The notes under the pieces are model-generated. The model saw nothing but the letters and a program-made list of their open reading frames with translations, was not told the origin of the DNA and did not search any database. The translations under genes were made by a program, and so were the position numbers. From Trichormus sp. ATA11-4-KO1 (lineage in GTDB: Bacteria > Cyanobacteriota > Cyanobacteriia > Cyanobacteriales > Nostocaceae), in assembly GCA_019358915.1 (NCBI GenBank), contig JAHHIM010000006.1, positions 64,001 to 128,000 on the forward strand: a stretch of DNA of 64,000 nucleotides, written 5' to 3'. Positions 15,576-54,005 of this stretch are shown here, piece after piece. Position 1 is the stretch's first letter; every line of letters begins with the position of its first letter.

Positions 15576-15662
15576 AAACGAATACCATTTTCGATTTTGG
15601 ATTAATCTCCAATTCGCTCATAAATTACGGGTAATGCAATTTACAACATATTAATAATTTAC

Positions 15663-16511: not shown

Positions 16512-16583
16512 GAGTATTGTGAACAGACTTATTGTGATGCAGTAGTTATCCTGATGGCAACAATGAAATTATCAGACTAATCC

Positions 16584-16790: not shown

Positions 16791-16800
16791 TTAGGCTGAT

Positions 16801-17316: not shown

Positions 17317-17448
17317 CCTGCTACCGAAAGAACCAGAAAACACATGCTCTTTTACTATGGAGATGTAGTTCTTGCTGCCGAGGTGCCGAAGACTGCAATA
17401 CCCCGAAGTCCAACATTGAAACCCACTGTCTGTTCGAGTTAGTAGTGG
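17317..17448. ncRNA. Candidate structured RNA A (long interrupted hairpin)
   Basis: Nested complementarity CTGCTA/TAGTAG, GAAC-CAGA/TCTG-TTC, TGGA/TCCA and GTAGTTCTT/AAGACTGC; GC-richer than the AT-rich flanks; no long ORF. Confidence 0.35.
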
Positions 17449-17467
17449 AGGACAAAATATTTTTATG

Positions 17468-17516
17468 AAAAAAAGAGTGAGAGGAGGCATACCAATCGCC
17501 TCTAGTCTCTCACTCT
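17468..17516 (-). terminator. Rho-independent terminator on the minus strand
   Basis: AGAGTGAGAG/CTCTCACTCT stem with inner GAGGC/GCCTC; the A7 run at 17468-17474 reads as a U-tract on the minus strand. Confidence 0.75.
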
Positions 17517-17637
17517 GGCATTTGCCACTGTAGAGCGCTCAGGAATATGTAGAGACGCTGCCCTTTATTTAGGGGGCTAACTGTATGTCAATGACAACGC
17601 CTATACACATCTAATATTCCTGGTGCGACAAATGCCA
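17516..17637 (-). ncRNA. Candidate multi-stem structured RNA B
   Basis: Perfect 9-bp helices TGGCATTTG/CAAATGCCA and CAGGAATAT/ATATTCCTG enclose two hairpins; directly followed by the terminator on the minus strand. Confidence 0.55.
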
Positions 17638-17849
17638 AGCCTGATTATTGATGTTTATTTGCTAAAAAGAATAATCTACAAATTAATGGTAGATATAGCT
17701 TTTTTGTCAATAAATTTGGTTGATTATGCCTGATAACAAAACCTTTGGAGTTGTTTATTTTTTATAATTTAACTCAGTTGAATTCAGCTTGGTTGCCATT
17801 TTGGCAGGTTTTTAGATTTTATAATTTTTATTTATTAGCTTTTAAAAGC

Positions 17850-17952
17850 TATAGCAATCCTAAATGAGTCACGAACAAAAAGATCCCCGAATTCTTCGAG
17901 AATTCGGGGATCTGAGCCTCTCACTGTTTGCAAATCAAATAGGATTGCTATA
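17850..17952. mobile_element. MITE family B carrying the 33-bp palindrome
   Basis: Terminal inverted repeats TATAGCAATCCTA/TAGGATTGCTATA; palindrome at 17881-17913; partial inverted copy at 36262-36326. Confidence 0.75.
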
Positions 17953-17982
17953 TTTCTCATATCCTTAAGTAACTAACGGGAC

Positions 17983-18043
17983 TTAGAGGATGTTTGTAAA
18001 TTATCCATTTATATTCGTCCAAAACTTTTCAAACACCCTCTTA
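17983..18043. mobile_element. Minimal IS-end/MITE remnant
   Basis: Imperfect inverted repeat TAGAGGATGTTTG...CAAACACCCTCTTA. Confidence 0.45.
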
Positions 18044-18084
18044 GCACGGTCTTGGGGGTTTCCCATGAGCAACTAGCGTAAATC

Positions 18085-18121
18085 AGTAAAAATGATACGT
18101 AATTTACGTATCATTTTTACT
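18085..18121. terminator. Perfect hairpin, probable terminator of 18161-18805
   Basis: AGTAAAAATGATACGTAA-T-TTACGTATCATTTTTACT. Confidence 0.6.
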
Positions 18122-18160
18122 TAAAAGCTCGATTTCAAAGGTTTTTGTTTTACAGTTATA

Positions 18161-18805
18161 TTAATACTTCTGTAAAATTGCAGACAAAGAACTCTGTTTA
18201 CGAATATCCATCAAATCCGCCAAAGATTCTTTCCTTTGATCCAGTGGATGCCTATGATCTGGTGGTAGAACCGTCACTAGAGTCCTTGATTTAGCTCGCA
18301 TTTGGTTAATGGGCTTCAGTGGTTGCATCGGCACAAAAACTGGCGGACTCTTTAAAGTCATTGGCTCCCATTTTTCACGACTGCTTGGTTTCAAGGGTAT
18401 CGGCTGACGATCGCGTTTGATCGGTTTGCGAACTTTTTGACGCTGGTTGGGATGGTTGAGTAACCGGACAATGATGAAGCAACCACTTGCACAACTGAGG
18501 GCGATCGCCGCTACCATCCATAAAGGTGTGGCATTACTATTCTCAGAGGACGTTGTGATTGGTTTTTCAACTACGGCGGGAATTTCTTCTAGTTCTGCAT
18601 TGTCCCCACTGCCAGCGTAACCCAAGCTATACAAAGCTAAAGCAGCAGATCCAAGAAGCATTGTTAACAAACCAGCTAACAAAAGTCCAGGATGGTGTGT
18701 AAGCAGATAGATAAAAATGTTCGAGCTACCCATTACTCCTGACTTATCATTTGTCAGTTCCGTTACTTGGGTTGGCTCATACTGTACGCTCTGACTATGT
18801 TCCAT
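18161..18805 (-). CDS. Hypothetical membrane protein (2 TM)
   Basis: Two hydrophobic segments; C-terminal LADLMDIRKQSSLS. Confidence 0.75.
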   Translation of the reverse strand: MEHSQSVQYEPTQVTELTNDKSGVMGSSNIFIYLLTHHPGLLLAGLLTMLLGSAALALYSLGYAGSGDNAELEEIPAVVEKPITTSSENSNATPLWMVAAIALSCASGCFIIVRLLNHPNQRQKVRKPIKRDRQPIPLKPSSREKWEPMTLKSPPVFVPMQPLKPINQMRAKSRTLVTVLPPDHRHPLDQRKESLADLMDIRKQSSLSAILQKY

Positions 18806-18972
18806 GATTACTTTCAGATTTGTACCCCTCTAGCCCACGATTGTACTTGAGGAGTTAGCTATCAGGTATCCGTAGCCAGATTTCGGAATCTAGTAGCTTT
18901 TTTTTGGGAACGTAGGCTACTAAATCCGATATTTTTGCTAAAATCGCTGCTTTTAGTGAATCGTTAATTTGA

Positions 18973-20046
18973 CTATGATTTCGATTTGTTACCAGAATGC
19001 CTTTCTAAAGCTAGTTGAATTAACCGATCTACTAATTCTGGAAAGGGTATTCCACTGTAAGCCCAGAGTTGGGGGTACATACTAGTAGCAGTAAAGCCTG
19101 GTAAGGTGTTGATTTCATTAATCAATACTTCCCCAGTAGCTTCCACGTAGAAAAAGTCTACTCTTGCTAATCCCGCAGCATCAACAGCTGTAAAGGCTTG
19201 CAATGCCATATCTTGAATTTGGCGGCTGATGGCATCGGGGATGGATGCAGGAATCAGTAAATCTGCTCTCCCGGCGGTATATTTGGTTTCGTAATCATAA
19301 AAATCGCTATCAAAGGTAATCTCACCTACGATAGAGGCTTTAGTTTGCTCATTACCTAATACGGCACATTCTACTTCCCTAGCAACTACGCCTGCTTCCA
19401 CAATTAACCGTCGGTCATAACTAGCAGCATTATCTAAAGCCGCTTCTAATTCTTGGCGCGATCGCACTTTGGCGATACCCACTGATGAACCTAAGTTAGC
19501 AGGTTTGACAAAACAGGGATAACCCAAGTTTGCCTCAATTTCGTCACACAGTTTAGGAAACACACAAGGATTTGACCAAACTTGCGCTCTCGTTAACGCC
19601 TGATATTTCACCTGGGGTAATCCTGCTTGCTCAAATGCCGTTTTCATGGCAATTTTATCCATACCCATTGCTGAACCTAACACCCCAGAACCAACAAAAG
19701 GAACTTGCATCAAAGTAAGCAATCCCTGAATAGTACCATCTTCACCATTAGGGCCGTGGAGAATGGGAAACCAAACATCTACTGCGGTGACTTGAGGAGG
19801 TGATTGCCAAAGGCCAAGGGTGGAAGTTTGAGCTTCTAGGTACGGGATACCAGATTCTAAAACCTTTTGGGGTACTTCTCCTGCTAACCAATTTCCATTT
19901 TGTTGGATATAAAAAGGTAGGATTTCGTACTTACTAGCATTTTGCTCTGCACTTAAGGCTTTAGCGATCGCTCTTGCTGAACTAATGGAAACTTCATGTT
20001 CCCCAGAACGCCCACCAAATAGCAATCCCACCCGTAGCTTATTCAT
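18973..20046 (-). CDS. ddl: D-alanine--D-alanine ligase
   Basis: [30 protein letters not shown] and NEINTLPG motifs. Confidence 0.97.
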
Positions 20047-40932: not shown

Positions 40933-41157
40933 TTACGGTGTTTTTTGCAAGTCAGGTCGTTCTTCTGGAACGATCGCATCTGCTACAGGACAAACTTGGA
41001 TACATATACCACAATCAATGCAAGTGGCAAAATCAATCCAGTACCAATCGGTTCCCTTCACATTTTTGCCTGGGCCTTCATGGATGCAAGCGACTGGACA
41101 AGCGTCTACGCAGTCAGCGACACCTTCACAAACATTAGTAACAATGGTGTGCGGCAT
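40933..41157 (-). CDS. Dicluster 4Fe-4S ferredoxin
   Basis: CEGVADCVDACP and CIDCGICIQVCP motifs. Confidence 0.92.
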   Translation of the reverse strand: MPHTIVTNVCEGVADCVDACPVACIHEGPGKNVKGTDWYWIDFATCIDCGICIQVCPVADAIVPEERPDLQKTP

Positions 41158-41212
41158 TTTCTCGATTCCCTCGTTTTCGGATCAGCTATATCTAGCCTAG
41201 CAGGGGAGTGGG

Positions 41213-41327
41213 CAGGGCTGTTTCATTCGTTGCTGTGCGATATTTGTCAAGAGGATAATCTCGCGCAAAGGCGCAAAGACGCGAAGAAAAATCACGGATT
41301 TAGGACTGAAGATGCCAAAAATATTGG
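41213..41327 (+). mobile_element. MITE family C, truncated copy
   Basis: Aligns with 21388-21505 (CAGGGCTGTTTCATTCG...GTCAAGAGGATAATCTC...GGACTGAAGATGCCAAAA); lacks the right terminal repeat. Confidence 0.75.
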
Positions 41328-41357
41328 CTAAAGGGGATTTTACCCAGTCCCCAGTCC

Positions 41358-41729
41358 CTATTCACCACATTGTAAAAGTTGTGCTTGAGGATAGACTTTT
41401 TTTAATTGTGATTGGCGTTCTGGGGATGATCGCCCGTAAGTTGATGACTGTAGTAGTGTTTGGGGTTCAGGTGGAATTGATAGGTTTTCTTCTCCTAGAC
41501 TGCTGAACAAGATGACGGATTGTAGTTGCAAACGACGTTGCTGGTGCTGCTGATAAAGTTGAGTATAGGTTTGAACAACTTGTTGCCATTCTGCTGTTGG
41601 ACAATAGCTGCGATCAATGAGTACGGTGATTGCCGGTATTGCTAACAACCAACTGATTAGCAATCCGGTGAGCAAAAAAGCTAACCAACTCAGTCCTATA
41701 GTTTTGAGAAGTTGGGTGTTGAGGTTCAT
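41358..41729 (-). CDS. Membrane-anchored hypothetical protein with a degenerate vWA-like strand
   Basis: N-terminal TM followed by ITVLIDRSYC (DxS-like). Confidence 0.7.
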   Translation of the reverse strand: MNLNTQLLKTIGLSWLAFLLTGLLISWLLAIPAITVLIDRSYCPTAEWQQVVQTYTQLYQQHQQRRLQLQSVILFSSLGEENLSIPPEPQTLLQSSTYGRSSPERQSQLKKVYPQAQLLQCGE

Positions 41730-41774
41730 TTGTGTAATCGTAATTTTTGGGATGAGACTGCTATCAAAAATTTG

Positions 41775-43505
41775 TTAAAGATTAGTCTGGAACAAGTCTT
41801 TGAGCAGAACTTGTACCTTTTCCGGTGTGCCTTGGTAAACACTACCTTCTCGAATTGCGGCGATCGCTGCTAATTCCTGCTGATTCACTTCACCATAAGC
41901 AATGGGATACACTCTCACCCCGCTATGCTCAATGACAGCTTTAATTTCTTTAAATTCGAGTCCTTTATTTTGTTCTCCATCAGTAAGCAGTAGGAGGTAG
42001 AATAAACCCTCTGGATCAAGTTTTTTCTGTTCCATCAGGTCTGCTAAACCTACGGCGAGTCCGTCATATAAGGCAGTTTCACCATCAGGTCTAAGTTGGT
42101 CAATAGCAGCAAATAATCGCTTTTGTTCTAGCTCGTTGAAGGGAGCAAGGGTGAGCCAGCGAGTGGGGCGATCGCTAAAGGTAACTAACCCAATCTGATT
42201 ATCCCGGTTAATTTGTTGACTAGCAAAGCGTAAGGCTTCCTGAACAGCCCGAAGACGATTGTCTTGGTGCATAGAACCACTGGTATCTACAACTAGTTCC
42301 ATATACACTGTTCGCCCGCCATCTTTACGCTGTTTCCAGAATGACTGCGCGGCTTTCAATACCTCACCAGATGGCATTGGAGGAAATTGACCTTGCTGGA
42401 GATATTTTGTCTGTTCATATCCCTGTTGTTCTGCCAATTGTTGCATCGGTGCAGAAGTGGCAAACTTGGCAAATTTATCCAAAGCTTCTCGCTCAGATGC
42501 CGTATTCCAATCAAATCCGGTTAATGGTGAATTTTCTGGTACACCGAAGGGAATGTAAGCTAGTTGGGCAAATTCTGGCTGTTTCTTTAAATTCACATAG
42601 CTTTGGTAAGCCATAACAATTGCTTGAAACTTTTGGGGATTGCGAATCCAAATTTGCTTTAAATCTAAATATGTGGGTGTTGTCAGGACAATTTGTTTTT
42701 GGAAGATGTTAAAGGCTGAATTGATTTGGGGAGATTCTAGTTCAGCAATAGTTAATGGTTTACCATCTTGAGTATGACCGGCTGAACGCCAAAGCAGTGT
42801 ATGCAGAAAATTTAACGCTGAAGAAGCAATGTAAGGATTGGAATAACCAACGTTGATTCTGCCCGTGAGAATAGCATCCATCAAGCGTTCAAATGTCACC
42901 TCTCCACCTTGAGCTAATTCTTTGTATACTTGGGGTTGAACCGCAAAAATAGCTTGGTTTGAGACTAACGCCGGAGCGATCGCTTGTAGGGGTAATCCTT
43001 CCGCTTTCAGTAATTCTAACCACATCGCCGTTGCCGGTGTATATCCTGCGGGTTTGCCCTTCCTAGCAGCTAGAATTTGTGCGCCTAATCCCGAAGGAAT
43101 ATTCCGAATCCCCACTTGAATCAATTGCCCAGATTTCAGCCTTTGTTGTTGCTGATTAAATTTTTCCGCGACATCAATTAACCAACGTTCATCCTGTCGT
43201 TCTCCATTGGCTTTCTCTGCTGAACTATAAATTTCAACATAGACGATATTAGGGTCATTGCTGGGCTTGGCTCCATACAAAGGGAAAGTGTTGGGATCAG
43301 GTACAGAATCAGCTACTGGCGGAATTACGACATTATAGGCGGCGGTGTCAGTTATCAGTTTTGATTCTAATTGAATCTTGGGTAAAAGATGTTGGCGCAG
43401 ATAGCTATCGGCACTGGCAAATGAATTAATGGATGTTGTACAAGCCCAAAGAAAACTCAGGCATACTCCCATAATTAGCCAGGGTGTGAAACGTAATTTT
43501 TTCAT
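41775..43505 (-). CDS. Substrate-binding-like domain plus C-terminal vWA protein, probable lipoprotein
   Basis: LWAC lipobox-like signal; YSSAEK and YSNPYIASSA motifs; VVDTSGSM MIDAS, GETALYD and LLTDG. Confidence 0.85.
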   Translation of the reverse strand: MKKLRFTPWLIMGVCLSFLWACTTSINSFASADSYLRQHLLPKIQLESKLITDTAAYNVVIPPVADSVPDPNTFPLYGAKPSNDPNIVYVEIYSSAEKANGERQDERWLIDVAEKFNQQQQRLKSGQLIQVGIRNIPSGLGAQILAARKGKPAGYTPATAMWLELLKAEGLPLQAIAPALVSNQAIFAVQPQVYKELAQGGEVTFERLMDAILTGRINVGYSNPYIASSALNFLHTLLWRSAGHTQDGKPLTIAELESPQINSAFNIFQKQIVLTTPTYLDLKQIWIRNPQKFQAIVMAYQSYVNLKKQPEFAQLAYIPFGVPENSPLTGFDWNTASEREALDKFAKFATSAPMQQLAEQQGYEQTKYLQQGQFPPMPSGEVLKAAQSFWKQRKDGGRTVYMELVVDTSGSMHQDNRLRAVQEALRFASQQINRDNQIGLVTFSDRPTRWLTLAPFNELEQKRLFAAIDQLRPDGETALYDGLAVGLADLMEQKKLDPEGLFYLLLLTDGEQNKGLEFKEIKAVIEHSGVRVYPIAYGEVNQQELAAIAAIREGSVYQGTPEKVQVLLKDLFQTNL

Positions 43506-43511
43506 GATTTT

Positions 43512-44216
43512 TTAATTTTCTAAAAGTCCTTTTTCGTTGTCAACAATCAGCATTTGTAATTGTTTAGAAATCAAATTAGGGGCATAGATTGAACGACGTT
43601 CTAGGGTTTCCAATGCAATTTGGTCGTGCAATTCCTGAAGTTGGTCATGAGTTTGCTGGAGTCTTTTTCGACTTCTTTGTAACTTTCGTTGTGCCAATTC
43701 TTGATAGCGTGGTGTTTGCACTTTTTGAGTAACCTGTAATGCTTCCACTAGTTGCTCAACCAAATCTAAAACAGTGTGCAAAGTTTCCAGCAGGTCTGGA
43801 GTGAAGGTTGATTCTTGTTGAGCAATTTGTTTAGTAATCTGCTGAATAGTTTGAGCTTGTTGCTGTACTGCTATCCATAGAGATAGAGAATTATCAGGAA
43901 TTTGGTGATTTAAATGGTTGAGATGACTTAAGAAAACATCAGTTTGCAGTAAATTTGTAGAGGTAACTGAAGGGCTATTTTTTTGGCTTTTGAGTTGCAC
44001 ATACCAGGAAGCGATCGCTAAAACAATAATCACCGCACCGCTAAATAAAACAGTCAAACGTATTCCTAGCCAAAAAACAAAGCCAAAATAACCAATCAAT
44101 AAACCAGTTAGTAGAATCTGAGTGTGAGTTAGTCGAAAATAATAACGCTTTAGTTGAGTCATAATTACTTTGTTGATAGTTTTGCGAGTGTCAAAATTGG
44201 TCACCGATAAAATCAT
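43512..44216 (-). CDS. Membrane protein (2 TM plus long helical/coiled-coil domain)
   Basis: Two N-terminal hydrophobic segments and a Q/L-rich helical C-terminus; 6 bp from the vWA gene; the start is probably later (MTQLKR). Confidence 0.75.
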   Translation of the reverse strand: MILSVTNFDTRKTINKVIMTQLKRYYFRLTHTQILLTGLLIGYFGFVFWLGIRLTVLFSGAVIIVLAIASWYVQLKSQKNSPSVTSTNLLQTDVFLSHLNHLNHQIPDNSLSLWIAVQQQAQTIQQITKQIAQQESTFTPDLLETLHTVLDLVEQLVEALQVTQKVQTPRYQELAQRKLQRSRKRLQQTHDQLQELHDQIALETLERRSIYAPNLISKQLQMLIVDNEKGLLEN

Positions 44217-44220
44217 TGGT

Positions 44221-44350
44221 TATAGCGTTTCCTAATCTGCTGAAGTACTGAGTACCTCGCTAAAAAAATTGGGCAATCTTTGCGTTCCTCTGCGCTACCT
44301 TAGCGTCCCTCTGCGTTGAAAATGTACCTCACTTAAATGGGAATCGATAT
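44221..44350. mobile_element. MITE-like element (family D)
   Basis: Imperfect terminal repeats TATAGCGTTTCC...TGAAGTAC and GTACCTCA...GGGAATCGATAT; internal CTCTGCG repeats. Confidence 0.55.
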
Positions 44351-45070
44351 CATTTTTCTATGCAAATGCATCACAAAAAGCAATTGCTTTCTATATTGAG
44401 AATTAAGCTCCTCTTGTATTTTCTCAATTGCTTCATTTGCTTTTTGTACTGTTTCTATTTTTCCTTGCTGTTCAAACAATATAGAAGCTTTTTGTAAGTC
44501 GGCGATCGCACCTTCTTTATCTTCTAAAAGATAGCGAGTCAAACCACGAAAATAATGGGCATAAGCAATATTAGGAATAATTGACAAAGCTTTATCAAAA
44601 TCTGCCTTCGCTGCTTGATATTCATTCAAACTAAAATAGCCCAATCCTCTACCAATGTATACATAAGGATTGTTAGATTCCATCTTTAAAACTTGGTTAA
44701 AATCTGTAATTGCACCCCGATAATCTTGTAAATCCATACGATTTAAAGCTCGTTGATAGAGTATAGCGGGATCAGTTTTTAGTTGTTTATTGGTTGAAAA
44801 ATCATTGCGGTTAACAGTACCGTTTGCGGATAGTTCTCTAACACTTGGTGATTGTACAACTTGAGCAACAGGTAGATTAGGAGTTTGTCCATAAACAGGG
44901 TTAAACATCACAAATTCTCCCATCGCACCCATCAACGGTAACAATAATTTAATTCCTAGCAAAAGTTTCTTTTTTTGCTGTTTGGGAAAATGAGTTAATT
45001 CTTGAAAATGACCTATTCCGCACAGGTGCAAGATATCAGTCAATAAACTTGCAGAAATTTTATTAGACAT
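44333..45070 (-). CDS. Tetratricopeptide-repeat protein
   Basis: DYRGAITDFNQVL, AAKADFDKAL and GAIADLQKA TPR units; its 3' end runs into the MITE. Confidence 0.85.
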   Translation of the reverse strand: MSNKISASLLTDILHLCGIGHFQELTHFPKQQKKKLLLGIKLLLPLMGAMGEFVMFNPVYGQTPNLPVAQVVQSPSVRELSANGTVNRNDFSTNKQLKTDPAILYQRALNRMDLQDYRGAITDFNQVLKMESNNPYVYIGRGLGYFSLNEYQAAKADFDKALSIIPNIAYAHYFRGLTRYLLEDKEGAIADLQKASILFEQQGKIETVQKANEAIEKIQEELNSQYRKQLLFVMHLHRKMISIPI

Positions 45071-45189
45071 AAGTATAGACTCCTGTTAGTGTTAGGTGAC
45101 AGCTAATAATTCAATACATTGTTATGTCTTAGTCGCAGTCCTGGCGGGTTGTGAACTGCTATAATGCCGGGAATATTGTTGATAAATTA

Positions 45190-45813
45190 TTATCGGTAAT
45201 ATCTTTGAAAAAATGCTCGCAACTGCTGCACAATCCATTGGATAAGAAGAAAAATAAAACCGAGAATGACTCTCATAGGGGCTAGTAGCATAGCCAATGC
45301 AAAAAAAGAACCAAGGATTGGTGGAAACCAGTTATATCGAACTGAAACAATCATTTTTTCTTGAGGATTTTCGATCAATTTGTTAAAGCGATAGTTTAAA
45401 GCTTCTAATTCAGGATCGTTGCGACGGGAGTAAGTCTTGATTTTGTGATCGCCGAAGGCGGGGCTTTGCCCATCACCACTTTTAGAGCGTAATATGGCAA
45501 CAAACTCTGTTTGACTTCCGCTTTCTGAGGAGGAATTACGAATATCAATATCCATTTTTTGAACATCTTTAATTTCTTGTTTTGATGAGCGCAATAAAGC
45601 CTGATATTTAAGTGTGCAATCTATACGCATCAAATCTATATCACGACAAGTAATTTTGCTTGGTTCACCTATCCATAAATTGGAATACAAGTACAATCCA
45701 TAACTCAATAAAAAACATCCAAGCCAGAAACAAGTAAGTGAAATACATATCCCCAATAGTATTTTTTCAGCTATCTTTTGACCTTGCGGTGATAATTTGG
45801 ACATAGTAAGCAA
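45190..45813 (-). CDS. Hypothetical membrane protein (TM, Cys-containing soluble domain, TM)
   Basis: Hydrophobic N- and C-terminal segments; ITCR...IDCTL. Confidence 0.72.
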   Translation of the reverse strand: MLTMSKLSPQGQKIAEKILLGICISLTCFWLGCFLLSYGLYLYSNLWIGEPSKITCRDIDLMRIDCTLKYQALLRSSKQEIKDVQKMDIDIRNSSSESGSQTEFVAILRSKSGDGQSPAFGDHKIKTYSRRNDPELEALNYRFNKLIENPQEKMIVSVRYNWFPPILGSFFALAMLLAPMRVILGFIFLLIQWIVQQLRAFFQRYYR

Positions 45814-45920
45814 AAAGATTATATTGACAGCAAACCTTCGACAAACGATAAAATCATTTGCACATCTGCAATTAAATTTTGATAATTCTGTTTTTGTGAA
45901 GGAATCAGGACAATTGCTTT

Positions 45921-45987
45921 TGATTCTGCTAAAGGTTTATCGGTGGATAGGATGAAAACTAACGAAACATTTACATAAGTTTACAAA
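45921..45987 (-). promoter_or_regulatory. Shared promoter cassette, copy 1 (CCGATA box plus HLR1-like repeat)
   Basis: TGATTCTGCTAAAGGTTTATCGG-N26-TTTACATAAGTTTACAAA on the + strand. Confidence 0.7.
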
Positions 45988-46225
45988 ATTCTCTACTATG
46001 GCAAGATGTAAATAGCACAACTATCTAAAATTGATAAAAAGCCTGTAGCGTAAACTTTTTGGCTTCCAACTTGTGGTACTTCATAGCCAGAAAATAAAGC
46101 CAACATAACCAATTAACAAACCAGTTATTAATAACTGAGTGTAAGAAAACCGTGACTTTTCATAAATGTTAATAACTTTGCAAGTAAAATTTGGTGCGTT
46201 CAACCAATCGCCCAACACTCACTAG

Positions 46226-46822
46226 CTATTTTTGAAGCGCCTGCTGAAAAGTCTTGATGGCATCAACATGATTCACCATATTAATGCAATGTAACAACAA
46301 ATCCAGATCGATCCCTTTGACTTCCTCACTACTGGAAACCCTTTCATAATGAAGTCCGTCGCCCTCATAGCGCAGGTGATAAATTTCCAACACACCATCC
46401 TCCCAAAACCACACTTCAGGAATCAAGAGCCGCTTGTATGCTTCCAGTTTGTTGATCCCACCACTGGTAAACACCACCTCTATCGCCAAATCGGGACGCA
46501 CTCGACCAGGGGCAAGTTTATAAGATTCATCTGCTTCTCGCTTGACAGCGCCCGATTCACTTTCTAGGCTCATTGAGCCAGTTGGGGTAAAGTCAAACCC
46601 TGCCACAAGCAAGTACAGTTCCAGCAATGCGGCAATTCTCTTCTTAACTGTTTCGTGTGCTTCTCCTGGCATTCTTCGGATCTCCAATATTCCATCCAGG
46701 AAAGACAGGCGATATCCTGGGCGCTCTAGCAACTGCTCAACTGCTTTGAATTCTCTCCAGGTCACTCCCTCAAACAACAGGGGTGATTCATGACGGGGTG
46801 TAGCGATCGCGGCTGGGGTCAT
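46226..46822 (-). CDS. Uma2 family endonuclease
   Basis: EADESY, PDLAIEVVFTS and IPEVWFW motifs. Confidence 0.92.
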   Translation of the reverse strand: MTPAAIATPRHESPLLFEGVTWREFKAVEQLLERPGYRLSFLDGILEIRRMPGEAHETVKKRIAALLELYLLVAGFDFTPTGSMSLESESGAVKREADESYKLAPGRVRPDLAIEVVFTSGGINKLEAYKRLLIPEVWFWEDGVLEIYHLRYEGDGLHYERVSSSEEVKGIDLDLLLHCINMVNHVDAIKTFQQALQK

Positions 46823-47045
46823 TTGAGTCTCCAGTCTGTTTCCAGGTGAGCAAATAAAGATGGCGTAGTCGGGCAGTTTGCTTATTTTAACTTCTTTTTT
46901 GGTTCAGGGCGTTCACTTACTGCCAATCCCTAATCCTGTAGTAATTTAACCTTGTTCTGTTACTTTCCTAAGCATTCACTGACACTATCCCATTATCTAC
47001 TTTTCCACTTTTACATAAATTGACACAACCGATTTTTCTTCAGAG

Positions 47046-47744
47046 TTAATCAATTAATCCTGCTTCTCTAGCACGAATTTTAGTGACAACTCTGATGTTT
47101 TTTCCTTGATTTTTTAATTCTTCGCAATCAATACCTAAAGCTGCTTGCAGCTGATCCCAGTAGTGGCGTACCATGCGTTCAGATACACAAATATGTGCGG
47201 CGATCGCTTTATCTTGTAATCCTTCATCAAAAGCTAGGCTGAGTAATTTTAATATCTCTGGTTTAAAGTTAAATTCTGAATAAATATCGGTAATCTCTTT
47301 GATGTGAGTAAATCCTTTTAACGCCCCATCTACTCTAGATAGCATTTCTTTAGCAGGAAGACTTTTATCAGCGATTACAAAGCCTCCTTGATGGATGCTG
47401 ATTGCAGATTTGATTTGCACAAGTCTTTGAATATAAGTACTTTGTACCAGAATATTCAGGTTAGGATATTTATGCATTATTTGTTGTAAGAATTCAATAC
47501 CTGTAAAAGTCCTTGCTTTCAATCCCAGCTTTTTTGACAGAAAAATATCCATAATTATCAAATTAGGCTGTGAATTCGAGATTTGATTGAAAGCTTCATC
47601 AGCCGTTTGAGCGCTGATAATTTTCATATTTGTATATTGACTTTTTAACAATTTAATTGTTCCAGTCAAATAGACATCATAACTATCAACTATAACAACT
47701 TGTGGTGATGCCTTTTCTAATAACAATTGACTCATAGTGACCAT
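47046..47744 (-). CDS. NarL-like response regulator (atypical receiver plus HTH)
   Basis: VIVDSYD and PNLIIMDIFL; C-terminal GLQDKAIAAHICVSERMVRHYW HTH. Confidence 0.85.
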   Translation of the reverse strand: MVTMSQLLLEKASPQVVIVDSYDVYLTGTIKLLKSQYTNMKIISAQTADEAFNQISNSQPNLIIMDIFLSKKLGLKARTFTGIEFLQQIMHKYPNLNILVQSTYIQRLVQIKSAISIHQGGFVIADKSLPAKEMLSRVDGALKGFTHIKEITDIYSEFNFKPEILKLLSLAFDEGLQDKAIAAHICVSERMVRHYWDQLQAALGIDCEELKNQGKNIRVVTKIRAREAGLID

Positions 47745-47800
47745 CTTTTAAGTTAAAAGTAAAAAGGCAAAATCCAGATGAAAGTTTAAAGTTACTTTCT

Positions 47801-47867
47801 TGACTCTGCTAAAGGACTATCGGAGTTTAAAGGCAAAATTGTGCAAATTTTTACATAAGTTTACAAA
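47801..47867 (-). promoter_or_regulatory. Shared promoter cassette, copy 2
   Basis: TGACTCTGCTAAAGGACTATCGG-N26-TTTACATAAGTTTACAAA on the + strand. Confidence 0.7.
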
Positions 47868-47872
47868 TAAAT

Positions 47873-50572
47873 TTATTGAGGATGAGGACAAGAATCATCT
47901 TTTACGAGATCGAACCTCAACTGTTCATTGACAGTGACGATTCCCCTCGTGGTAATTTCTCGGCGATCGCCTCTAGCATCAAAACTAATCGATACGCCTT
48001 GGCTTGTCGCACTAGATGCTGCTACCCCCTTGATAATTCCTGTATTCGCCAATTTCTGCCGGATATCTTCTCGAGTTATGGGTGAGTCTGATAGTTTAAT
48101 GGCTTGCAGTACCGCCTGAACAGCCTCATAAGCCAGGGCTGTCCGGCGATTTAAATCACCGCCCCAGTATTCGTTGATTTGTTGAGCAAAAGCTTGTGCG
48201 CCACATTGTTTTGGATGCCAATCAACCGCCAGGAATAAGCTATTTACTGTAGCATCTTTAGTCTGATCAATAACTTCTTGGAGGTAGAGGGGATTTGCTG
48301 CTAAAACTGGTTTTTTTCTCTCGTTTAATTTGATAATCTCAATCGCTTTTGCAAATGCTACATTATCATCAGTACCCCCATCTGCTAATACTGCCAGAGC
48401 ATCTGCATCTTGAACTTGTGGCGGAAGTTGACCAATATCTAATTTAGGATCTGCAAGATCAAATTCAGCAACTATACTGCCTTTAAATGCTCTAAGTACC
48501 AAAATAAATTGCTCTAACAAGTCCTTACTAAATAATTCTTGAGAGTTGTAAAAAGCAACCACTTTTGGTTGAGGCTTTTTGAGAACCTCAACTAAATACT
48601 GCACTAGACTCTGAGCTTCTACTCGACTAGATGAAACAGTCCTGAAGAATACTTTATATGGGTCACCGCCACAAGCTGGACTGGATGGGAGATTAACAAG
48701 GCTGCTGGTAGGAGAAATCACTACAAGCGGGTGTGGTTTATGAGAATAGACCTTCAAAGCTGCACAGGTATTGGGAGAGGTGTAGTGTCCTACCACAGCG
48801 AGAACGTTGGCATCTTCTTTGAGCATTTTTGCCACTCCTCTCGCTTGTTCGGTGTTGTTATTATCATTAGCAATCACAACTTGCAAATTAATACCTTGCT
48901 GAACCGCTACATCTTGTGCTTGAGCAACTCCAAATACGATATCTAACCCAGCATTGAAATTTAGTGGTGCAGCAACAGCAATAGTGTAAATTGGCAAATC
49001 TGGGTTTTGGCTATGACGATGCATCACAAAGGCATTATTGCGAGAAATTAAAACTATGGGGTCTTGTAGTGCTGTAAAAGCTGCTTGGCTGATAGATGGA
49101 ACCGCTTTATTTTGTTGTGCTAGATGACGCAACTGTTCAAAAATCTTTGCCGCATCTGCATATTGATTTTGAGAAAATGCTGTAATACCTTGTTGTTTTA
49201 ATGAAAGATATGGCTCACTTAGTTGTACTTTGCTGTTAGCAATTGGTTTTTCACCAATACTGATATAGTCGTCTAATGGGGGAAGTGGACTGAGGCAAAT
49301 TGAGGGAAAAATCTGACATCGGTGCATCGCCACTGGAGTAGCTACAGCGATGATTCCAGCTAAAACAACCCCCGTCATCAGATAAGGACGAGACAGGTAA
49401 GATTGACAACGAGAAAGTAGTGATGGCTCAGGCCACACTAATTCCGGCTGATTCGGATTCAGGCAAACGGCGGGTAGCCAGGAAGCGGCCGGGAACTCTA
49501 TTCTTTGTATCGGTTCCAGGCGATCGCGTGCCTCCCGTACTGCCCGAAAAAGTGGTATACCTTGAGAAAATTGCTGTAAAAAGTCGAGTAAGAATTGACA
49601 AGCAATTTCATCGGGTACAGGTTCTCGCATCACAATCACCGCAGGTACTTTCAACCTTGCCAAAAAATCTGCAATCCCTAACCCATCACAAGAATTAAAG
49701 ATTGCCAACTTTAACCCTCTGGTGACTGCTCTCCTTAACCCTTGACGTAAATCATTTAATTTGAAAAAATCGCCATCACCAATTTGTATACCACTGTCTT
49801 CAATATTGGTTCTATCACTACAACTATGGCCAGAAAAGAGCAAGATATCCCAACTGTGATTAAATAACAAATCAGACAATTCTTGATCCGTCGGCTGTGA
49901 TTTCAGAGTAATTTTTGCCCCCCGCTTTTGCAGGAGGTTTAATGCTGCTTGATCTTTTTCTAGTTGTAAACCACCATGAGAACTACCGAAAATGGCTAAA
50001 ACTTTGACTGGTGCTTTCAGGGCAGGGACTTGTTTCGCAAATCCAGAGAATAATGTAAACTCAGCTTTAGGCAGTTCGGTAAATAAATCCCAAAGATGCC
50101 AAGGTAACCTGCGCAGCAGTTCATTGGGATTATGATTGTGTGTAGGGCATCTGATGATAATGGGGACAGATTGATCGTTGTTGACCCTGATATCTGCGAT
50201 ATCTGCCCGAATGCGATCGCTCAAACGCTCAAATGCTTCATTATTAAACCAGCTTTTACAGTATTTTTCTAGGTTTCTCGTGCTTTCTGCCCAGGCTACG
50301 TTAGTTACCTGGTCTGGAACAGGTTCGAGTTTCCGGTTACCTGGTTTATGTGACCATTTACGAACACGATCTAGTGATATACCTTGCCATTCTTTATACA
50401 ACTGCGGCATTTCTGGCGCAGCAGGAAGACAAATAAAATCCTCATATTCTTTGATAGTTTTAGCATCTTGCAATACCTTCAGCGTCACAGGAAACCCAGC
50501 ATCGAAGCTACCGCCACTAATCTCCAGTACCACGGCGACATTTTGAGGATGTCTCAAGATAAAGTCAAGCAT
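47873..50572 (-). CDS. CHAT (caspase/HetF-like) protease-TM-periplasmic Venus-flytrap (LivJ-type) receptor
   Basis: LRRLPWHLW, LFSGHS (His) and AIFNSCDG (Cys); TM YLMTGVVLAGIIAVAT; GVAQAQ, VIANDNN, VVGHYTS, VISPTSS and FFRTV binding-protein motifs. Confidence 0.9.
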   Translation of the reverse strand: MLDFILRHPQNVAVVLEISGGSFDAGFPVTLKVLQDAKTIKEYEDFICLPAAPEMPQLYKEWQGISLDRVRKWSHKPGNRKLEPVPDQVTNVAWAESTRNLEKYCKSWFNNEAFERLSDRIRADIADIRVNNDQSVPIIIRCPTHNHNPNELLRRLPWHLWDLFTELPKAEFTLFSGFAKQVPALKAPVKVLAIFGSSHGGLQLEKDQAALNLLQKRGAKITLKSQPTDQELSDLLFNHSWDILLFSGHSCSDRTNIEDSGIQIGDGDFFKLNDLRQGLRRAVTRGLKLAIFNSCDGLGIADFLARLKVPAVIVMREPVPDEIACQFLLDFLQQFSQGIPLFRAVREARDRLEPIQRIEFPAASWLPAVCLNPNQPELVWPEPSLLSRCQSYLSRPYLMTGVVLAGIIAVATPVAMHRCQIFPSICLSPLPPLDDYISIGEKPIANSKVQLSEPYLSLKQQGITAFSQNQYADAAKIFEQLRHLAQQNKAVPSISQAAFTALQDPIVLISRNNAFVMHRHSQNPDLPIYTIAVAAPLNFNAGLDIVFGVAQAQDVAVQQGINLQVVIANDNNNTEQARGVAKMLKEDANVLAVVGHYTSPNTCAALKVYSHKPHPLVVISPTSSLVNLPSSPACGGDPYKVFFRTVSSSRVEAQSLVQYLVEVLKKPQPKVVAFYNSQELFSKDLLEQFILVLRAFKGSIVAEFDLADPKLDIGQLPPQVQDADALAVLADGGTDDNVAFAKAIEIIKLNERKKPVLAANPLYLQEVIDQTKDATVNSLFLAVDWHPKQCGAQAFAQQINEYWGGDLNRRTALAYEAVQAVLQAIKLSDSPITREDIRQKLANTGIIKGVAASSATSQGVSISFDARGDRREITTRGIVTVNEQLRFDLVKDDSCPHPQ

Positions 50573-50650
50573 AACAGAGTCAGACTGTGTGGGAGGTAAA
50601 GAATTTATGTCTTAGATAAGCACGATTTAGCAAAGCTAGGCAATAGGCAG

Positions 50651-51784
50651 CTAAACCACAAAACTCTCAGTAAAACTGGCATTTTGGAGAACAACACTGA
50701 CACTGAAGCGATCGCCTGGGTCAGCTGTAAACTTAAATTGTATATAGTCGTCTTGTGGACGTATTTCTACTTCAAAAAAGGAATTTCCGGTTTCGTCCAA
50801 CCCGATTAATTTCAATCCTGATGGTAGCGAAGACGGTTTTTCTAGTTGATACAATCGCAAGAGAATTAACACTCTATTATCTAACTTGGGCAAAATACCC
50901 ACCATCAGTAAGACAGGATATCCCAGCAGGTAAATGCCTAAATCTTTCCCACTGATTACCGGAGAGGCGGGATGTTGGGGATTAAGTTCCCACAGAACTT
51001 CAGCCGCTTGCCAACGAATTTCGTCATCTTGAGTAGTTTGGATGAGATTTTCCAAAGCTGCTGGGAAATCCAGGTTAACTGAAATGGGTTGTACCAAATT
51101 ACGCGTATGTCGGCGATAGAGTTGTTCAACTCGTTGGCGAATGGGGTCATTACTGCGTTGTAGTTGCATCTGTGACCCACAAAATTTTAAAGTTGCTTTT
51201 TGGATATTATTCAGTAAATCTTTTGGGGGTTGCCAATCGGATTCAAATATGCGTTTGCGCCATTCTTGCAGTTGGACAATTGGTTGTGGCGATCGCTCTG
51301 AGGTCAAATGCTCTAGAAATACATCAAGTGGTTGAAAATAACTGCGTGGTAATTCCGACACTGAGACGGATTCTACAAATCCTACAATTTGTCCCTCTTG
51401 GTAAGGTTCATCGAGTTGAATGATGACGTAGCCAATGCGTTCTGACCAAACTTCTGCGGGAATTAGACATTTGCGATCGCCTTGACGTAGGGAACGACAC
51501 TCTAAAAAGCCTGACAATGCTGGAATATATAAATCAGCAACGTTTTCTAACAGACGTTCTAGAGGATTCCAACTATGACTAACTTCTAAATCGGTATCAA
51601 TTCCCAACAGTTGCAAACAACGCTGAGTCACCAACACAGCTAAGGTATTCCGATAAACTTGCTCTGATCGTTTTGGGGTTGGCTGTTGTTGAGCAAACTG
51701 ATAGGCTTGTTGGCGATCGCTAGCTGTAATGGGAATAGCAATCGGGGTGAATTTTGTAGCGGTATCAATCATGATTCGTATCAA
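50651..51784 (-). CDS. DUF1822 family protein
   Basis: FAQQQ...VYRNTLAV, ADLYIP..LECR, EVWSERIGYVIIQ and LPSGLKL...DDYIQFKF...ESFVV motifs. Confidence 0.85.
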   Translation of the reverse strand: MIRIMIDTATKFTPIAIPITASDRQQAYQFAQQQPTPKRSEQVYRNTLAVLVTQRCLQLLGIDTDLEVSHSWNPLERLLENVADLYIPALSGFLECRSLRQGDRKCLIPAEVWSERIGYVIIQLDEPYQEGQIVGFVESVSVSELPRSYFQPLDVFLEHLTSERSPQPIVQLQEWRKRIFESDWQPPKDLLNNIQKATLKFCGSQMQLQRSNDPIRQRVEQLYRRHTRNLVQPISVNLDFPAALENLIQTTQDDEIRWQAAEVLWELNPQHPASPVISGKDLGIYLLGYPVLLMVGILPKLDNRVLILLRLYQLEKPSSLPSGLKLIGLDETGNSFFEVEIRPQDDYIQFKFTADPGDRFSVSVVLQNASFTESFVV

Positions 51785-51812
51785 AGAAAATATCTGGAAA
51801 CTTTAGAGGACA

Positions 51813-52526
51813 TTATTCAGACAACAACTGTTTAAAAATCCGGAAACAGCGTGTGCGACAAAATCTTTTCAGTGATGATGCTGCAACTCCATAATTTTGA
51901 GCGATCGTATCCCAAGAAAATTTTTCTGTTTCTGAATCGCGCAACACTATTAATATCTGCGTCAACACAATCTGACAGTTGACATGAGGATGTTTCTGCA
52001 TTTGACAATTTTTGAGTAAATGCGGATTATTTTGCACTAACTCTAGCCATTCTTTGATCGTTTGCTTCAAAGGAGGAAGAGGAGGCGGATAAATCCATTC
52101 GTTATCTTCTCTATCTGGAGGAAGACGTAAACGATTTTTCTCTTCCTTGGCTCTTTCTCGAATGACATCTAGAATCATCCATCTCAGCTTTTGGTTAAAC
52201 CAGGTAACAAAGCTGGCCTTTTCTGGGTTATACCTCTGACAAAAATCTTCTAAAAACCATACCCAAGTTCGTGATAGTGCTTCACTATAGACATCTGGTG
52301 ATATCCTATTGCCACACCAAATCAATCGAGAAGAAGTCATCATTGTGATGATAAAAGTCTTAACTTGATTTGGGTCATCAGGTTGACACGCTTGCTCAAA
52401 TAGCCATTGACGAGCAGGAATATCGTTGATAATTTCCTGGAGCTTTTGACGGTGCTGTAATAGCCTGCTCTTTTCAATTGGGTCATTAAAAGCAGCTTGC
52501 AGTAAATCCCTCAAGTCATTACACAT
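51813..52526 (-). CDS. Sigma-70/ECF-like (HetZ-related) DNA-binding protein
   Basis: Region-2-like YSEALSRTW...YNPEKASFVTWFNQKL; region-4-like SWDTIAQNYGVAASSLKRF HTH. Confidence 0.75.
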   Translation of the reverse strand: MCNDLRDLLQAAFNDPIEKSRLLQHRQKLQEIINDIPARQWLFEQACQPDDPNQVKTFIITMMTSSRLIWCGNRISPDVYSEALSRTWVWFLEDFCQRYNPEKASFVTWFNQKLRWMILDVIRERAKEEKNRLRLPPDREDNEWIYPPPLPPLKQTIKEWLELVQNNPHLLKNCQMQKHPHVNCQIVLTQILIVLRDSETEKFSWDTIAQNYGVAASSLKRFCRTRCFRIFKQLLSE

Positions 52527-52793
52527 AAGGGTTATCCAGACCCAATCAATTCAGGTTTGAATTTCATGACAGTACCTAACCTCCCCTTACTTGCCTAGTA
52601 GGTTATCGGAAGTAGAAACTGGAATATTCCCAATTGTTTACAAAATGTTATTTATTAAGGCGAGATAGGAGAAATGAGTGCCTTTCTGAGTGCTTCCTTC
52701 CTGAGTGCGCTTGCCCTGAGCGAAGTCGCAGGGGAGTGCTGAGTGAGGAGTAGGAATTTAACCTCCTACTTCCCCCTATTCCCCACTCCCTAA

Positions 52794-54005
52794 CTAACGC
52801 AATGATTCAATTGTCGGTGAACCATCAGATTTAATCCAAGCAATTTGGGCAATACCGCGATCGCTTGCGTATTGCCTAATAGCTTGTGTATCTCTGCCGC
52901 CCAAGTCCATTTCTACACGTACCAAGTTAGTAGAATCACGCAGTTTTTGTGCGTAGGCAAAGGCGGCAGCCTCAGCAGTTGGTGTTTCTGCTACTACTAA
53001 CCAGTTACTCGCTGGGGTTGCCTGGGGTAATTGCTGAGTAGATAAAAGAACTTGGTATAAATCTTCGATGTTGAGGACAAAACCAATTCCGGGGATGTTT
53101 TCTCCTTGGGGATGATACAGTCCCAAAAGCTTGTCGTAGCGCCCACCGCGCCCTAAAACCCTTGCTTGCGACCCAGTATCACTGACAACTTCAAAGACTA
53201 TACCTGTGTAGTAATCTATAGTTTGGATCAGGCTAAGGTCAAGAATTAAAGGAAATTCCCCTTCCGATTTTAATAACTCTACCAGAGATTTAAGGTTATT
53301 TACTATCTCTTGTTGTTCTGCGTCTAAACCTAAGCTACTAACTTTTTGCAAGACATCAGCACTGTCACCGCGCAGATCCATCATGATTCTGGCGCGATCG
53401 CGCAATTCATCGCTCAGGGGTAAAGTATCTATGGCAATGCGGTCGAGATGGGCGATCGCACTGCGAACTTTAGCTTGGAGATGAGCGGGAAAGGCATCAA
53501 GGAGCGATCGCGTGATTCCCGCTTCGCCTAGAATCAAATGCCAATTCTGCAAACCCAGCGCTGACAAACAATTTGCCGCTAATAGCAGCACTTCTGCATT
53601 GGACAGCAATCCGCCGACACCCAACAACTCAACCCCAGCTTGATAAAACTCTTGCTGGCGATTGTGCCTGTTTTCCCAGGTACGGCGGAAGACGTTGGCA
53701 TTGTAGTACAAGCGTTGCGGATAAGTAACACCTGCCATCCGCGTGACAACTGCACGAGCAATGGAGGCTGTCAATTCTGGACGCAATCCTAACTCTTCAT
53801 CTTCAGTACTTTGCAGTTGAATCACCATTTGGCGTTGAATTGCTTCCCCTGCCATCAATGTATCCATTCGTTCCAACGTCGAAGTGATAATCCTGTGATA
53901 TCCCCAACGATGAAACACCTGCTGTAACCTATCTTCAATCCAGCGTTTTTGAGCCACATCTAAAGGTAATAAATCCCTGGCTCCCGCTGCTGGTTGATAC
54001 ACCAT
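52794..54005 (-). CDS. hisZ: ATP phosphoribosyltransferase regulatory subunit
   Basis: GARDLLP, LRPELTASIAR, QEFYQAGVEL, YYTG and GGRYD motifs. Confidence 0.95.
   Translation of the reverse strand: MVYQPAAGARDLLPLDVAQKRWIEDRLQQVFHRWGYHRIITSTLERMDTLMAGEAIQRQMVIQLQSTEDEELGLRPELTASIARAVVTRMAGVTYPQRLYYNANVFRRTWENRHNRQQEFYQAGVELLGVGGLLSNAEVLLLAANCLSALGLQNWHLILGEAGITRSLLDAFPAHLQAKVRSAIAHLDRIAIDTLPLSDELRDRARIMMDLRGDSADVLQKVSSLGLDAEQQEIVNNLKSLVELLKSEGEFPLILDLSLIQTIDYYTGIVFEVVSDTGSQARVLGRGGRYDKLLGLYHPQGENIPGIGFVLNIEDLYQVLLSTQQLPQATPASNWLVVAETPTAEAAAFAYAQKLRDSTNLVRVEMDLGGRDTQAIRQYASDRGIAQIAWIKSDGSPTIESLR

Follow-up and report, generated by a model that had tools for sequence, protein, structure and literature searches.

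A cyanobacterial sigma factor, DUF1822 protein and CHAT receptor protease as a candidate proteolytic sigma switch

Introduction

What could connect a sigma factor, a protein of the family DUF1822 and a membrane-bound protease with an external ligand-binding domain, when their genes stand side by side in a cyanobacterium? The question is raised by a locus of Trichormus sp. ATA11-4-KO1 (contig JAHHIM010000006.1), located within a stretch of 64,000 nucleotides (forward-strand positions 64,001 to 128,000; referred to as the window, whose own numbering is used below). The original prediction for this locus proposed a ligand-gated switch, in which the protease cleaves DUF1822 acting as an anti-sigma factor and thereby releases the sigma factor. 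Several parts of this proposal are now supported computationally by the co-occurrence of the genes, the modelled binding of the sigma factor to DUF1822, an intact HetF-like protease and a conserved arginine in a DUF1822 linker, while the further steps are formulated conditionally. Our best reading, to which we assign a probability of roughly 60%, is a one-membrane proteolytic sigma switch, in which a signal from outside would control the cleavage of an anti-sigma factor and the output would be gated also by RpaB.

The gene set itself is already known in silico. Kaur, Iyer, Burroughs and Aravind (eLife 2021; PMC8195603) catalogued sensors with an EACC2 domain and a caspase beside a sigma factor of the extracytoplasmic function (ECF) type and DUF1822, called the latter a TPR protein and proposed a stimulus-induced autopeptidase activation acting via the ECF sigma factor; their layouts include EACC2+CASPASE+CHASE2, as found in a paralogue of the Trichormus genome. 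The earlier statement that a mechanistic description of such triads is lacking is thus partly wrong: the neighbourhoods and the autopeptidase idea had been published, and in the sections of that paper on these genes DUF1822 is proposed neither as anti-sigma factor nor as substrate. Within the available text of PMC9679502, DUF1822 appears as a table entry only. A literature search, outside of which subscription journals lay, rarely met the name DUF1822 and nowhere PF08852, and found no earlier sigma:DUF1822 model, no anti-sigma layout of the distant family described below, no Arg-[Ser/Gly/Thr] motif in the linker and no combination of an HLR1 repeat with CGATA. If the model is true, a large family of sigma switches gated by caspases operates in filamentous cyanobacteria and parallels the HetF-PatU3-HetZ pathway of heterocysts. 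The family is directly testable because this copy has a candidate cut site, a binding domain and predicted promoters (three) at hand, together with the catalytic residues and target genes.

Results

The gene triad and its conservation

All three open reading frames (ORFs) lie on the minus strand in tight co-orientation, as originally described, and are separated by gaps of 40 and 78 bp. The first gene (51813..52526) encodes a divergent ECF-type sigma factor of 237 aa composed of an N-terminal helical extension, a sigma2 and a sigma4-like domain; the second (50651..51772) the DUF1822 protein of 373 aa, a predicted anti-sigma factor with a PD-(D/E)XK-fold domain, a linker and a beta-sandwich; and the third (47873..50572) a receptor protease of 899 aa with the architecture EACC2-CHAT-transmembrane helix-(TPR-like)-Peripla_BP_6. 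The DUF1822 ORF would extend over 50651-51784 and 377 aa if a TTG start were used; as the proteins of relatives comprise 373 aa, translation more probably begins with the ATG at 51772. The nearest named relatives are heterocyst-forming cyanobacteria.

Co-occurrence of the three genes across genomes, claimed in the original prediction, was found. Among 31 loci of relatives, 26 have the sigma gene upstream of DUF1822, 27 an EACC2-CHAT gene downstream and 22 both; contig ends or fragments account for several of the misses. For 61 DUF1822 ORFs in 60 further loci, picked for diversity among 150 Pfam matches listed (260 more exist beyond those), the corresponding numbers are 53, 47 and 41. The triad is hence real and conserved, and a member of a cyanobacterial EACC2-caspase/sigma/DUF1822 family. 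Of 301 genomes sampled from the phylum, 198 have Pfam matches to DUF1822, often with several each, whereas none of 14 controls has one.

The sigma factor and DUF1822 form the tighter pair, since in 30 best-per-genome loci inspected with 1.5 kb flanks a sigma gene is directly upstream in 29 and an EACC2-CHAT gene downstream in merely 5. The core therefore consists of this pair, with the protease-sensor as its exchangeable input. Fourteen of the 61 DUF1822 ORFs have no EACC2-CHAT neighbour; five of these have another protease gene directly downstream, encoding TPR-CHAT (three), caspase-STAND (one) or trypsin (one). The sensors vary likewise, relatives carrying CHASE2, PBP_like_2, TPR or nSTAND1-WD40 modules and the window protein a transmembrane helix with Peripla_BP_6. 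Moreover, sigma length tracks the type of DUF1822, short sigma factors being paired with one type and long ones with the other (47 + 60 pairs, none crossed); these 107 pairs include kin and are not independent, so that shared descent contributes to the lack of crossing.

The sigma factor

The designation sigma-70-like is weak by sequence and rests on family matches and on the fold. Pfam gave no sigma match for the 237-aa protein, and TIGR02937 matched at E 2.8e-4, below its cut-off; at E<=0.001, 68 of 149 members of its family match TIGR02937. Sequence searches of solved structures yielded nothing useful for the window sigma factor (best RpoE, E 0.02, with a wider profile) and no match for a long paralogous sigma factor. 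The AlphaFold2 (AF2) model has a predicted local distance difference test score (pLDDT) of 93, and in the fold comparison (VIA) most top rows are sigma2 or sigma4 domains of ECF sigma factors. Residues 36-132 match sigma2 (best Z 7.5, root-mean-square deviation (rmsd) 3.0, 91 aligned) and residues 154-237 match sigma4 (Z 5.7). Foldseek against the PDB returned no match at E<=0.001, although most top rows were sigma factors. The fold matches correspond to the ECF layout of sigma2 and sigma4 domains with no region 3, at sequence scores below curated cut-offs. The HetZ models NF037963, NF037964 and NF037965 did not match the window sigma factor at E<=0.1, and the true HetZ of the genome scored 651 bits.

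In three genomes the sigma gene is split at an identical place (L018, L020 and L023:5197-5959; proteins P0175, P0177, P0178, P0190 and P0279). The N-terminal half of ca. 80 codons ends with GGA TAA, and the C-terminal half begins 8 nt further on in the +1 frame after a purine-rich run. Synonymous and non-synonymous changes are about equally frequent in both halves, and other clusters likewise contain halves that were called separately. This reflects a programmed +1 frameshift or, alternatively, a sigma factor made of two pieces.

DUF1822 as a predicted anti-sigma factor

The DUF1822 identity was confirmed by Pfam (E 2.9e-77). Its AF2 model (pLDDT 88.7) consists of a PD-(D/E)XK-fold domain (ca. 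11-164), a W..W motif followed by a flexible linker with a low-confidence segment at 199-205, then a short stretch of helix and, at ca. 267-373, a beta-sandwich of Ig-like type; as modelled, DUF1822 is not mainly a TPR protein. The N-terminal domain resembles I-Ssp6803I (Z 9.2, rmsd 3.1, 115 aligned) and Hjc (Z 8.1, rmsd 3.2, 103 aligned); PD-(D/E)XK nucleases account for 6 of the top 12 fold rows, and phage restriction-endonuclease-like matches were obtained as well. Neither a TRADD-N nor an RRM-like chain occurs among the 50 fold matches listed. By sequence, no relative was recognized among solved structures (best E 0.013, spectrin), nor did Foldseek retrieve any PDB entry for the model at E<=0.001. 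The catalytic D...(D/E)xK motif was not found: on motif inspection, which served to assign the positions, the window clade has D...ExR and no lysine. This clade keeps Asp80 (109 of 127 sequences), Glu91 (108) and Arg93 (106), and the acidic position of the first helix is a valine; when all clades are taken together, non-catalytic residues predominate at these sites (D 45, E 46 and R 44 of 123). The nuclease-fold domain is probably repurposed and inactive.

Complex modelling, by which the original prediction had suggested that the pairing be checked, supports an interaction: the sigma:DUF1822 model reached an interface score (ipSAE) of 0.76, the best of three controls 0.00. Of 157 solved complexes 116 attain the mark used for this score, as do 2 of 215 mismatched pairs, and the mark is a rough guide here, own alignments having been used; solved sigma/anti-sigma complexes exist, and likeness to them may raise the value. 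Runs share at least 81% of the contacts, and the pLDDT of the partner is at least 81. Residues 9-185 of DUF1822 pack onto sigma residues 57-85, 112-133, 141-160 and 191-235, such that both sigma domains are touched, and minor contacts originate from DUF1822 residues 266-284 and 364-368. Among the contacted sigma helices are those that align with what we take to be regions 2.2 and 2.4, presumably responsible for core and -10 binding. According to the model, DUF1822 probably binds the sigma factor via its N-terminal PD-(D/E)XK-fold domain, and the nature of the interface suggests that it might thereby inhibit it. Gene pairing and a modelled complex, i.e. being co-encoded with a sigma factor and binding it, are among the features expected of an anti-sigma factor.

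A separate hint comes from a distant family (f31) of the same phylum and another class with small genomes, which is probably non-photosynthetic, as judged from genome size. Five of its genomes were examined, four of them with complete context. All four complete loci encode a protein that begins with the DUF1822 N-domain and continues with an anti-sigma-like helical segment, an acidic linker and one transmembrane helix, and the next gene encodes a Sigma70_r4 protein of ca. 190 aa; TonB-C follows in two of the four, HxxxCxxC is found in one, and zf-HC2 matches merely at E 0.15. This arrangement looks like the layout of a transmembrane anti-sigma factor. A three-gene unit is kept in these loci (L156-L159; genomes G269, G099, G102 and G189), the second gene encoding the sigma factor, which is ECF-like, and the third a zinc-ribbon-ATPase-TPR protein, and many genomes of this family have one weak DUF1822 match each.

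The receptor protease

Pfam assigns residues 208-358 of the 899-aa protein to CHAT (E 1.3e-14) and residues 556-853 to Peripla_BP_6 (E 1.7e-26). The first ca. 185 residues (50018..50572, minus strand), which the original prediction had overlooked, just as it had passed over the genes downstream of the triad and the common promoter element, constitute a domain conserved ahead of CHAT in homologues with differing sensors. The name EACC2 is used here following Kaur et al., on the basis of the architecture and independently of their EACC2 alignment. Residues 1-390 are conserved in homologues whose C-termini differ and align at E 5e-68 with the CHAT-CHASE2 paralogue that stands beside DUF1822 in the same genome.

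The catalytic dyad (49688..49828, minus strand) was correctly recognized as intact: His249 (49826-49828) within FSGHS, starting at residue 246, and Cys295 (49688-49690) within FNSCDG, starting at 292, are invariant in 78 of 78 homologues and aligned with the dyad of HetF. The N-terminal 400 residues match a HetF profile with a probability of 99.6 over 252 columns; EACC2 alone matches the HetF N-terminus with a probability of 5% over 41 columns. By sequence comparison, this is an intact CHAT protease homologous to HetF. Asp321, present in 74 of the 78 homologues and aligned with an Asp of HetF, is presumably the equivalent of the aspartate in separase that contacts the substrate arginine. In separase, this Asp binds the P1 Arg (PMC10317155).

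One strong hydrophobic segment only is present, in accordance with the single transmembrane helix claimed earlier (residues 398-416; 49325..49381, minus strand; Kyte-Doolittle 2.14, next best segment 1.53). As no signal peptide was seen in the receptor protease, the protease part is expected in the cytoplasm and the Venus-flytrap domain (residues 556-853; 48014..48907, minus strand; assigned by its Pfam match) in the periplasm or the thylakoid lumen. The latter had been described as an external amino-acid-binding domain; the fold assignment stands with Peripla_BP_6, and "amino-acid-binding" is a family label only. Its similarity to solved LivJ-like binding proteins is weak (best E 1.2e-7). The extracytoplasmic part (47873-49330) contains several cysteines (424, 430 and others further on), which could form disulfides, and a helical TPR-like segment precedes the flytrap, TPR_14 being matched in one relative.

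A candidate cleavage site

HetF cuts PatU3 at Arg117|Ser118, for which its soluble CHAT domain suffices (PMC9457339), and PatU3 inhibits sigma-HetZ (PMC13342950). By likening an Arg-[Ser/Gly/Thr] motif in the DUF1822 linker to this Arg|Ser bond, we arrive at Arg206|Ser207 (373-aa numbering; 51152..51157, minus strand) as the candidate scissile bond. It adjoins the low-pLDDT segment 199-205 in the local context Gln205-Arg206-Ser207. R[SGT] occurs shortly after an invariant Trp in 96 of 123 DUF1822 sequences from all clades. At 90% non-redundancy the motif is found 6-31 residues after this Trp in 87 of 113 sequences, compared with 44±5 after shuffling (maximum 61 in 2000), and at 50% in 33 of 51 compared with 20±3; when K, D, E, Q or N is substituted for the arginine, far fewer occurrences are counted.

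A relationship between PatU and DUF1822, pursued by four approaches, is suggestive only. Whole profiles aligned by hhalign give probabilities of 0.2-0.9%, one weak alignment over 175 columns (P 0.068) places the Arg cut in PatU on a DUF1822 Arg, the C-terminal domains give P 0.003 compared with 0.055 when reversed, PatU ranks 741-1167 in profile searches of the ORFs of its own genome, and ESM Atlas values of 0.76 and 0.84 are leads, no more. The top non-family match of the DUF1822 profile in the genome, C65, turned out not to be a PatU when this possibility was examined.

Promoter-like elements and putative targets

Three co-oriented copies of a two-box element, composed of an HLR1-type repeat (box A) and CGATA, accompany the triad on the minus strand. 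Element 1 (52604..52654) precedes the sigma gene with a repeat at 52637-52654 (14/16) and CGATA at 52604-52608; element 2 (47818..47867), just after the stop codon of the protease gene, has a perfect repeat at 47850-47867 (16/16) and CGATA at 47818-47822; and element 3 (45938..45987), in front of an envelope cluster, has a perfect repeat at 45970-45987 (16/16) and CGATA at 45938-45942. In each of the 22 close loci, 8 of which lie outside the training set, the element stands upstream of the sigma gene, and further co-oriented copies follow the protease gene in 13 of the 22. It was absent from L024-L031, of which L031 retains only a DUF1822 fragment. When scanned with a matrix built from other genomes only, with the downstream copies weighted threefold, the 5.97 Mb genome gave 9 matches, of which the three local sites are the first three (29.0 at 47862, 24.7 at 52649 and 20.6 at 45982; next site 18.2).

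Box A matches the consensus of HLR1, the RpaB site, which consists of two copies of (G/T)TTACA(T/A)(T/A) with a 2-nt gap (PMC6525291), by a mean of 13.9/16 over 37 copies. The genome has 15 perfect HLR1 sites, 2 of them here; among 454 HLR1-like sites, 4 have CGATA 27-28 nt downstream (ca. 0.6 expected), 3 of these 4 at this locus. If CGATA serves as -10 element, HLR1 would be centred near -49 and thus within the range from -45 to -66 in which RpaB activates (PMC6525291). In the preferred reading, the three predicted promoters would be read by RpaB and this sigma factor. Known RpaB-activated promoters share the two 8-nt direct repeats with the 2-nt gap (PMC6525291); the box of the window differs by its pairing with a fixed CGATA instead of a housekeeping -10, with the start site assumed from CGATA. 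A sigma-70 consensus scan of 41000-53000 found no excess (21 compared with 27±6), no second conserved element follows CGATA beyond a short CCT and a purine-rich ribosome-site sequence, and no RNA holder is listed for the region. At DUF1822 loci that are more distant, an HLR1-like box A in the upstream region (L132:614 and L136:8513, minus strand) is combined with a different second box, possibly a sign of sigma-specific -10 elements.

Behind element 2 lies a response regulator gene as putative target (47046..47744, minus strand), which encodes a receiver (Response_reg, E 1.5e-7) and a probable C-terminal helix-turn-helix domain. It was considered as a core fourth gene and rejected, being present in the fetched flanks of 4 of 91 loci only. 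A Uma2-family gene at 46226-46822, between the response regulator gene and element 3, is probably an insertion, as no homologue was found in the 91 loci searched. Element 3 is followed by a putative target cluster (41358..45813, minus strand) for a 207-aa membrane, a 245-aa TPR, a 234-aa membrane-anchored helical, a 576-aa solute-binding/vWA and a 123-aa protein. Homologues of the 234-aa (11 matches) and 576-aa (8) genes occur in related loci, mostly downstream of the triad behind the same element. At L011:12124-13209, homologues of the 207-aa and 234-aa genes are joined in one reading frame, which supports their working together.

Discussion

Proposed mechanism and alternatives

For the switch preferred here we propose the following scenario. 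The nuclease-fold domain of DUF1822 holds, as modelled, both sigma2 and sigma4 and would keep the sigma factor inactive. Binding of a small molecule to the flytrap outside the membrane would change the activity of the cytoplasmic HetF-like CHAT domain across one helix, an arrangement compatible with the architecture. The protease might then cut DUF1822 after the linker arginine, probably at Arg206|Ser207, and part the sigma-binding N-terminal module from the C-terminal beta-sandwich; the N-terminal fragment would subsequently be lost, probably via a second protease. The freed sigma factor is expected to transcribe its own operon, the response regulator gene and the downstream envelope cluster from the three promoters. 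With HLR1 positioned at a fixed 27-28 nt upstream of CGATA, the output would depend also on RpaB, i.e. on the light or redox state.

Several observations weigh against this scenario. Binding, cleavage and transcription are predictions. The sigma sequence matches below curated cut-offs and the Foldseek E-values exceed 0.001. Many sigma-DUF1822 pairs, 25 in the 30 best-per-genome loci, have no adjoining EACC2-CHAT gene. At 50% non-redundancy R[SGT] is enriched only modestly, and the motif is missing from the part searched in 26 of 113 sequences; in the window clade the main Arg position is often Cys, Tyr, Ser or Ala, and QR[SG] follows ca. 8-10 residues further on. Most predicted sigma contacts are N-terminal to the candidate cut, so that cleavage alone need not free the sigma factor; because most of the interface would stay intact, a second degradation step is likely, as discussed similarly for Csx30 (PMC10028731). 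The soluble HetF CHAT domain is active without a sensor domain (PMC9457339), and the ligand could therefore be an off switch. Finally, the spacer between HLR1 and CGATA has no conserved -35, and GATAGT in the downstream copies could be a weak housekeeping -10 read by another sigma factor.

The last point leads to the alternative that survives best, although we consider it rather doubtful: the switch operates as proposed, and it is RpaB together with a different sigma factor that reads the HLR1-CGATA promoters, the regulon of the window sigma factor lying elsewhere. This would be compatible with all protease steps, box A being a known RpaB site (PMC6525291) and GATAGT of the downstream copies near to a housekeeping -10. 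However, box A with CGATA is nearly confined to this locus (3 of 4 genome-wide), and the element travels with the triad in all close loci and is missing where only a DUF1822 fragment is left.

An opposite sign of the switch appears unlikely to us. The protease would be on by default and keep DUF1822 low, as HetF does with PatU3, until the ligand shuts it off. The window protease is a HetF homologue, and HetF CHAT devoid of transmembrane and TPR parts cuts PatU3 in vitro and complements the deletion, PatU3 being undetectable in the wild type (PMC9457339). On the other hand, the CHAT domains of Csx29 and DdvA rest inactive until triggered (PMC11506125), and an apparently autoregulated sigma operon would better fit an inducible response.

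Slightly less still speaks for the autopeptidase of Kaur et al., in which CHAT cleaves itself and DUF1822, acting as an adaptor that stays uncut, relays the signal to the sigma factor. Self-cleavage was proposed in PMC8195603, a similar idea was raised for DdvA (PMC11506125), and the C-terminal beta-sandwich of DUF1822 could dock on the receptor; yet neither the Arg-[Ser/Gly/Thr] that the DUF1822 linker conserves in all clades nor the other proteases beside DUF1822 where EACC2-CHAT is absent would be explained.

We regard as improbable that DUF1822 is a cleavage-activated effector or co-factor, whose nuclease fold cuts or binds DNA in defence or cell death or which stays as a second sigma subunit, since in spite of the PD-(D/E)XK fold and the Asp80, Glu91 and Arg93 kept in the window clade the catalytic lysine is lacking, the first-helix acidic position is Val, the positions are mostly non-catalytic across clades, the model covers the helices that we take to bind core and -10, and the predicted targets are envelope and signalling genes. 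Such a role would agree with Kaur et al. having put the family among counter-invader systems (PMC8195603).

Going beyond the preferred switch, we tentatively consider a joint reading that we hold to be possible at best. DUF1822 would represent an unrecognised anti-sigma class built on a dead PD-(D/E)XK fold, older than the split from the non-photosynthetic relatives, and caspase-like receptors encoded alongside would cleave it behind a conserved Arg. Sigma-HetZ, PatU3 and HetF might then be a dispersed, specialised member, PatU3 being a remote homologue of the C-terminal two-thirds of DUF1822 with the same Arg|Ser bond, and the copy in the window would act as an AND gate of periplasmic ligand and RpaB light/redox status.

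Relation to known systems

Like the EACC2 systems, the window protein combines a constant N-terminal domain and a caspase fold with a variable sensor (transmembrane and small-molecule-binding ones included) next to an ECF sigma factor and DUF1822, which places it in that family. In contrast to the description of Kaur et al., DUF1822 is modelled here as nuclease fold, linker and beta-sandwich and binds the sigma factor in the model; moreover, it carries a candidate cut site, and both a promoter element and targets at the locus are predicted. The pathway of HetF, PatU3 and sigma-HetZ shares the membrane-anchored cytoplasmic CHAT, an ECF-type sigma factor with a co-encoded inhibitor (a predicted one here) and an Arg|Ser site (a candidate one here) followed by a C-terminal domain (PMC9457339, PMC13342950), whereas the sensor is a Venus-flytrap in the window and TPR in HetF. 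The Trichormus genome has its own hetF (C8) and hetZ-patU (C2) apart from the window.

Craspase (Csx29, Csx30 and CASP-sigma) is also built on CHAT, a soluble anti-sigma factor with a sigma-binding N-terminal part, one cut and local autoregulated promoters (PMC10028731), features that are predicted here. It differs by its trigger, a target RNA recognized via Cas7-11, by the soluble TPR-CHAT and by the CRISPR context (PMC10028731), and no Csx30 chain is among the fold matches listed for DUF1822. DdvS-DdvA of Myxococcus xanthus likewise places an ECF sigma factor under a protein with CHAT and one transmembrane helix (PMC11506125). In DdvA, CHAT is periplasmic and fused to the anti-sigma factor, whereas in the window it is predicted to be cytoplasmic, with the putative anti-sigma factor separate and soluble.

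Further DUF1822 loci

Two further DUF1822 loci are present in the Trichormus genome, on the contigs C73 and C13. The former (L001:1907-5228 and 15243-19381) comprises genes for DUF1822, EACC2-CHAT-CHASE2 and DUF928, with a short sigma gene and a TPR-CHAT gene ca. 10 kb upstream, from which it is separated by a Rep_1 gene and a two-component pair. The latter (L161:7099-9532) consists of a pair of a 392-aa sigma factor and DUF1822 with no adjoining protease. Elsewhere (L026-L028), tandem arrays of genes for DUF1822, EACC2-CHAT-flytrap and sigma-like proteins of 351-407 aa are found in altered order.

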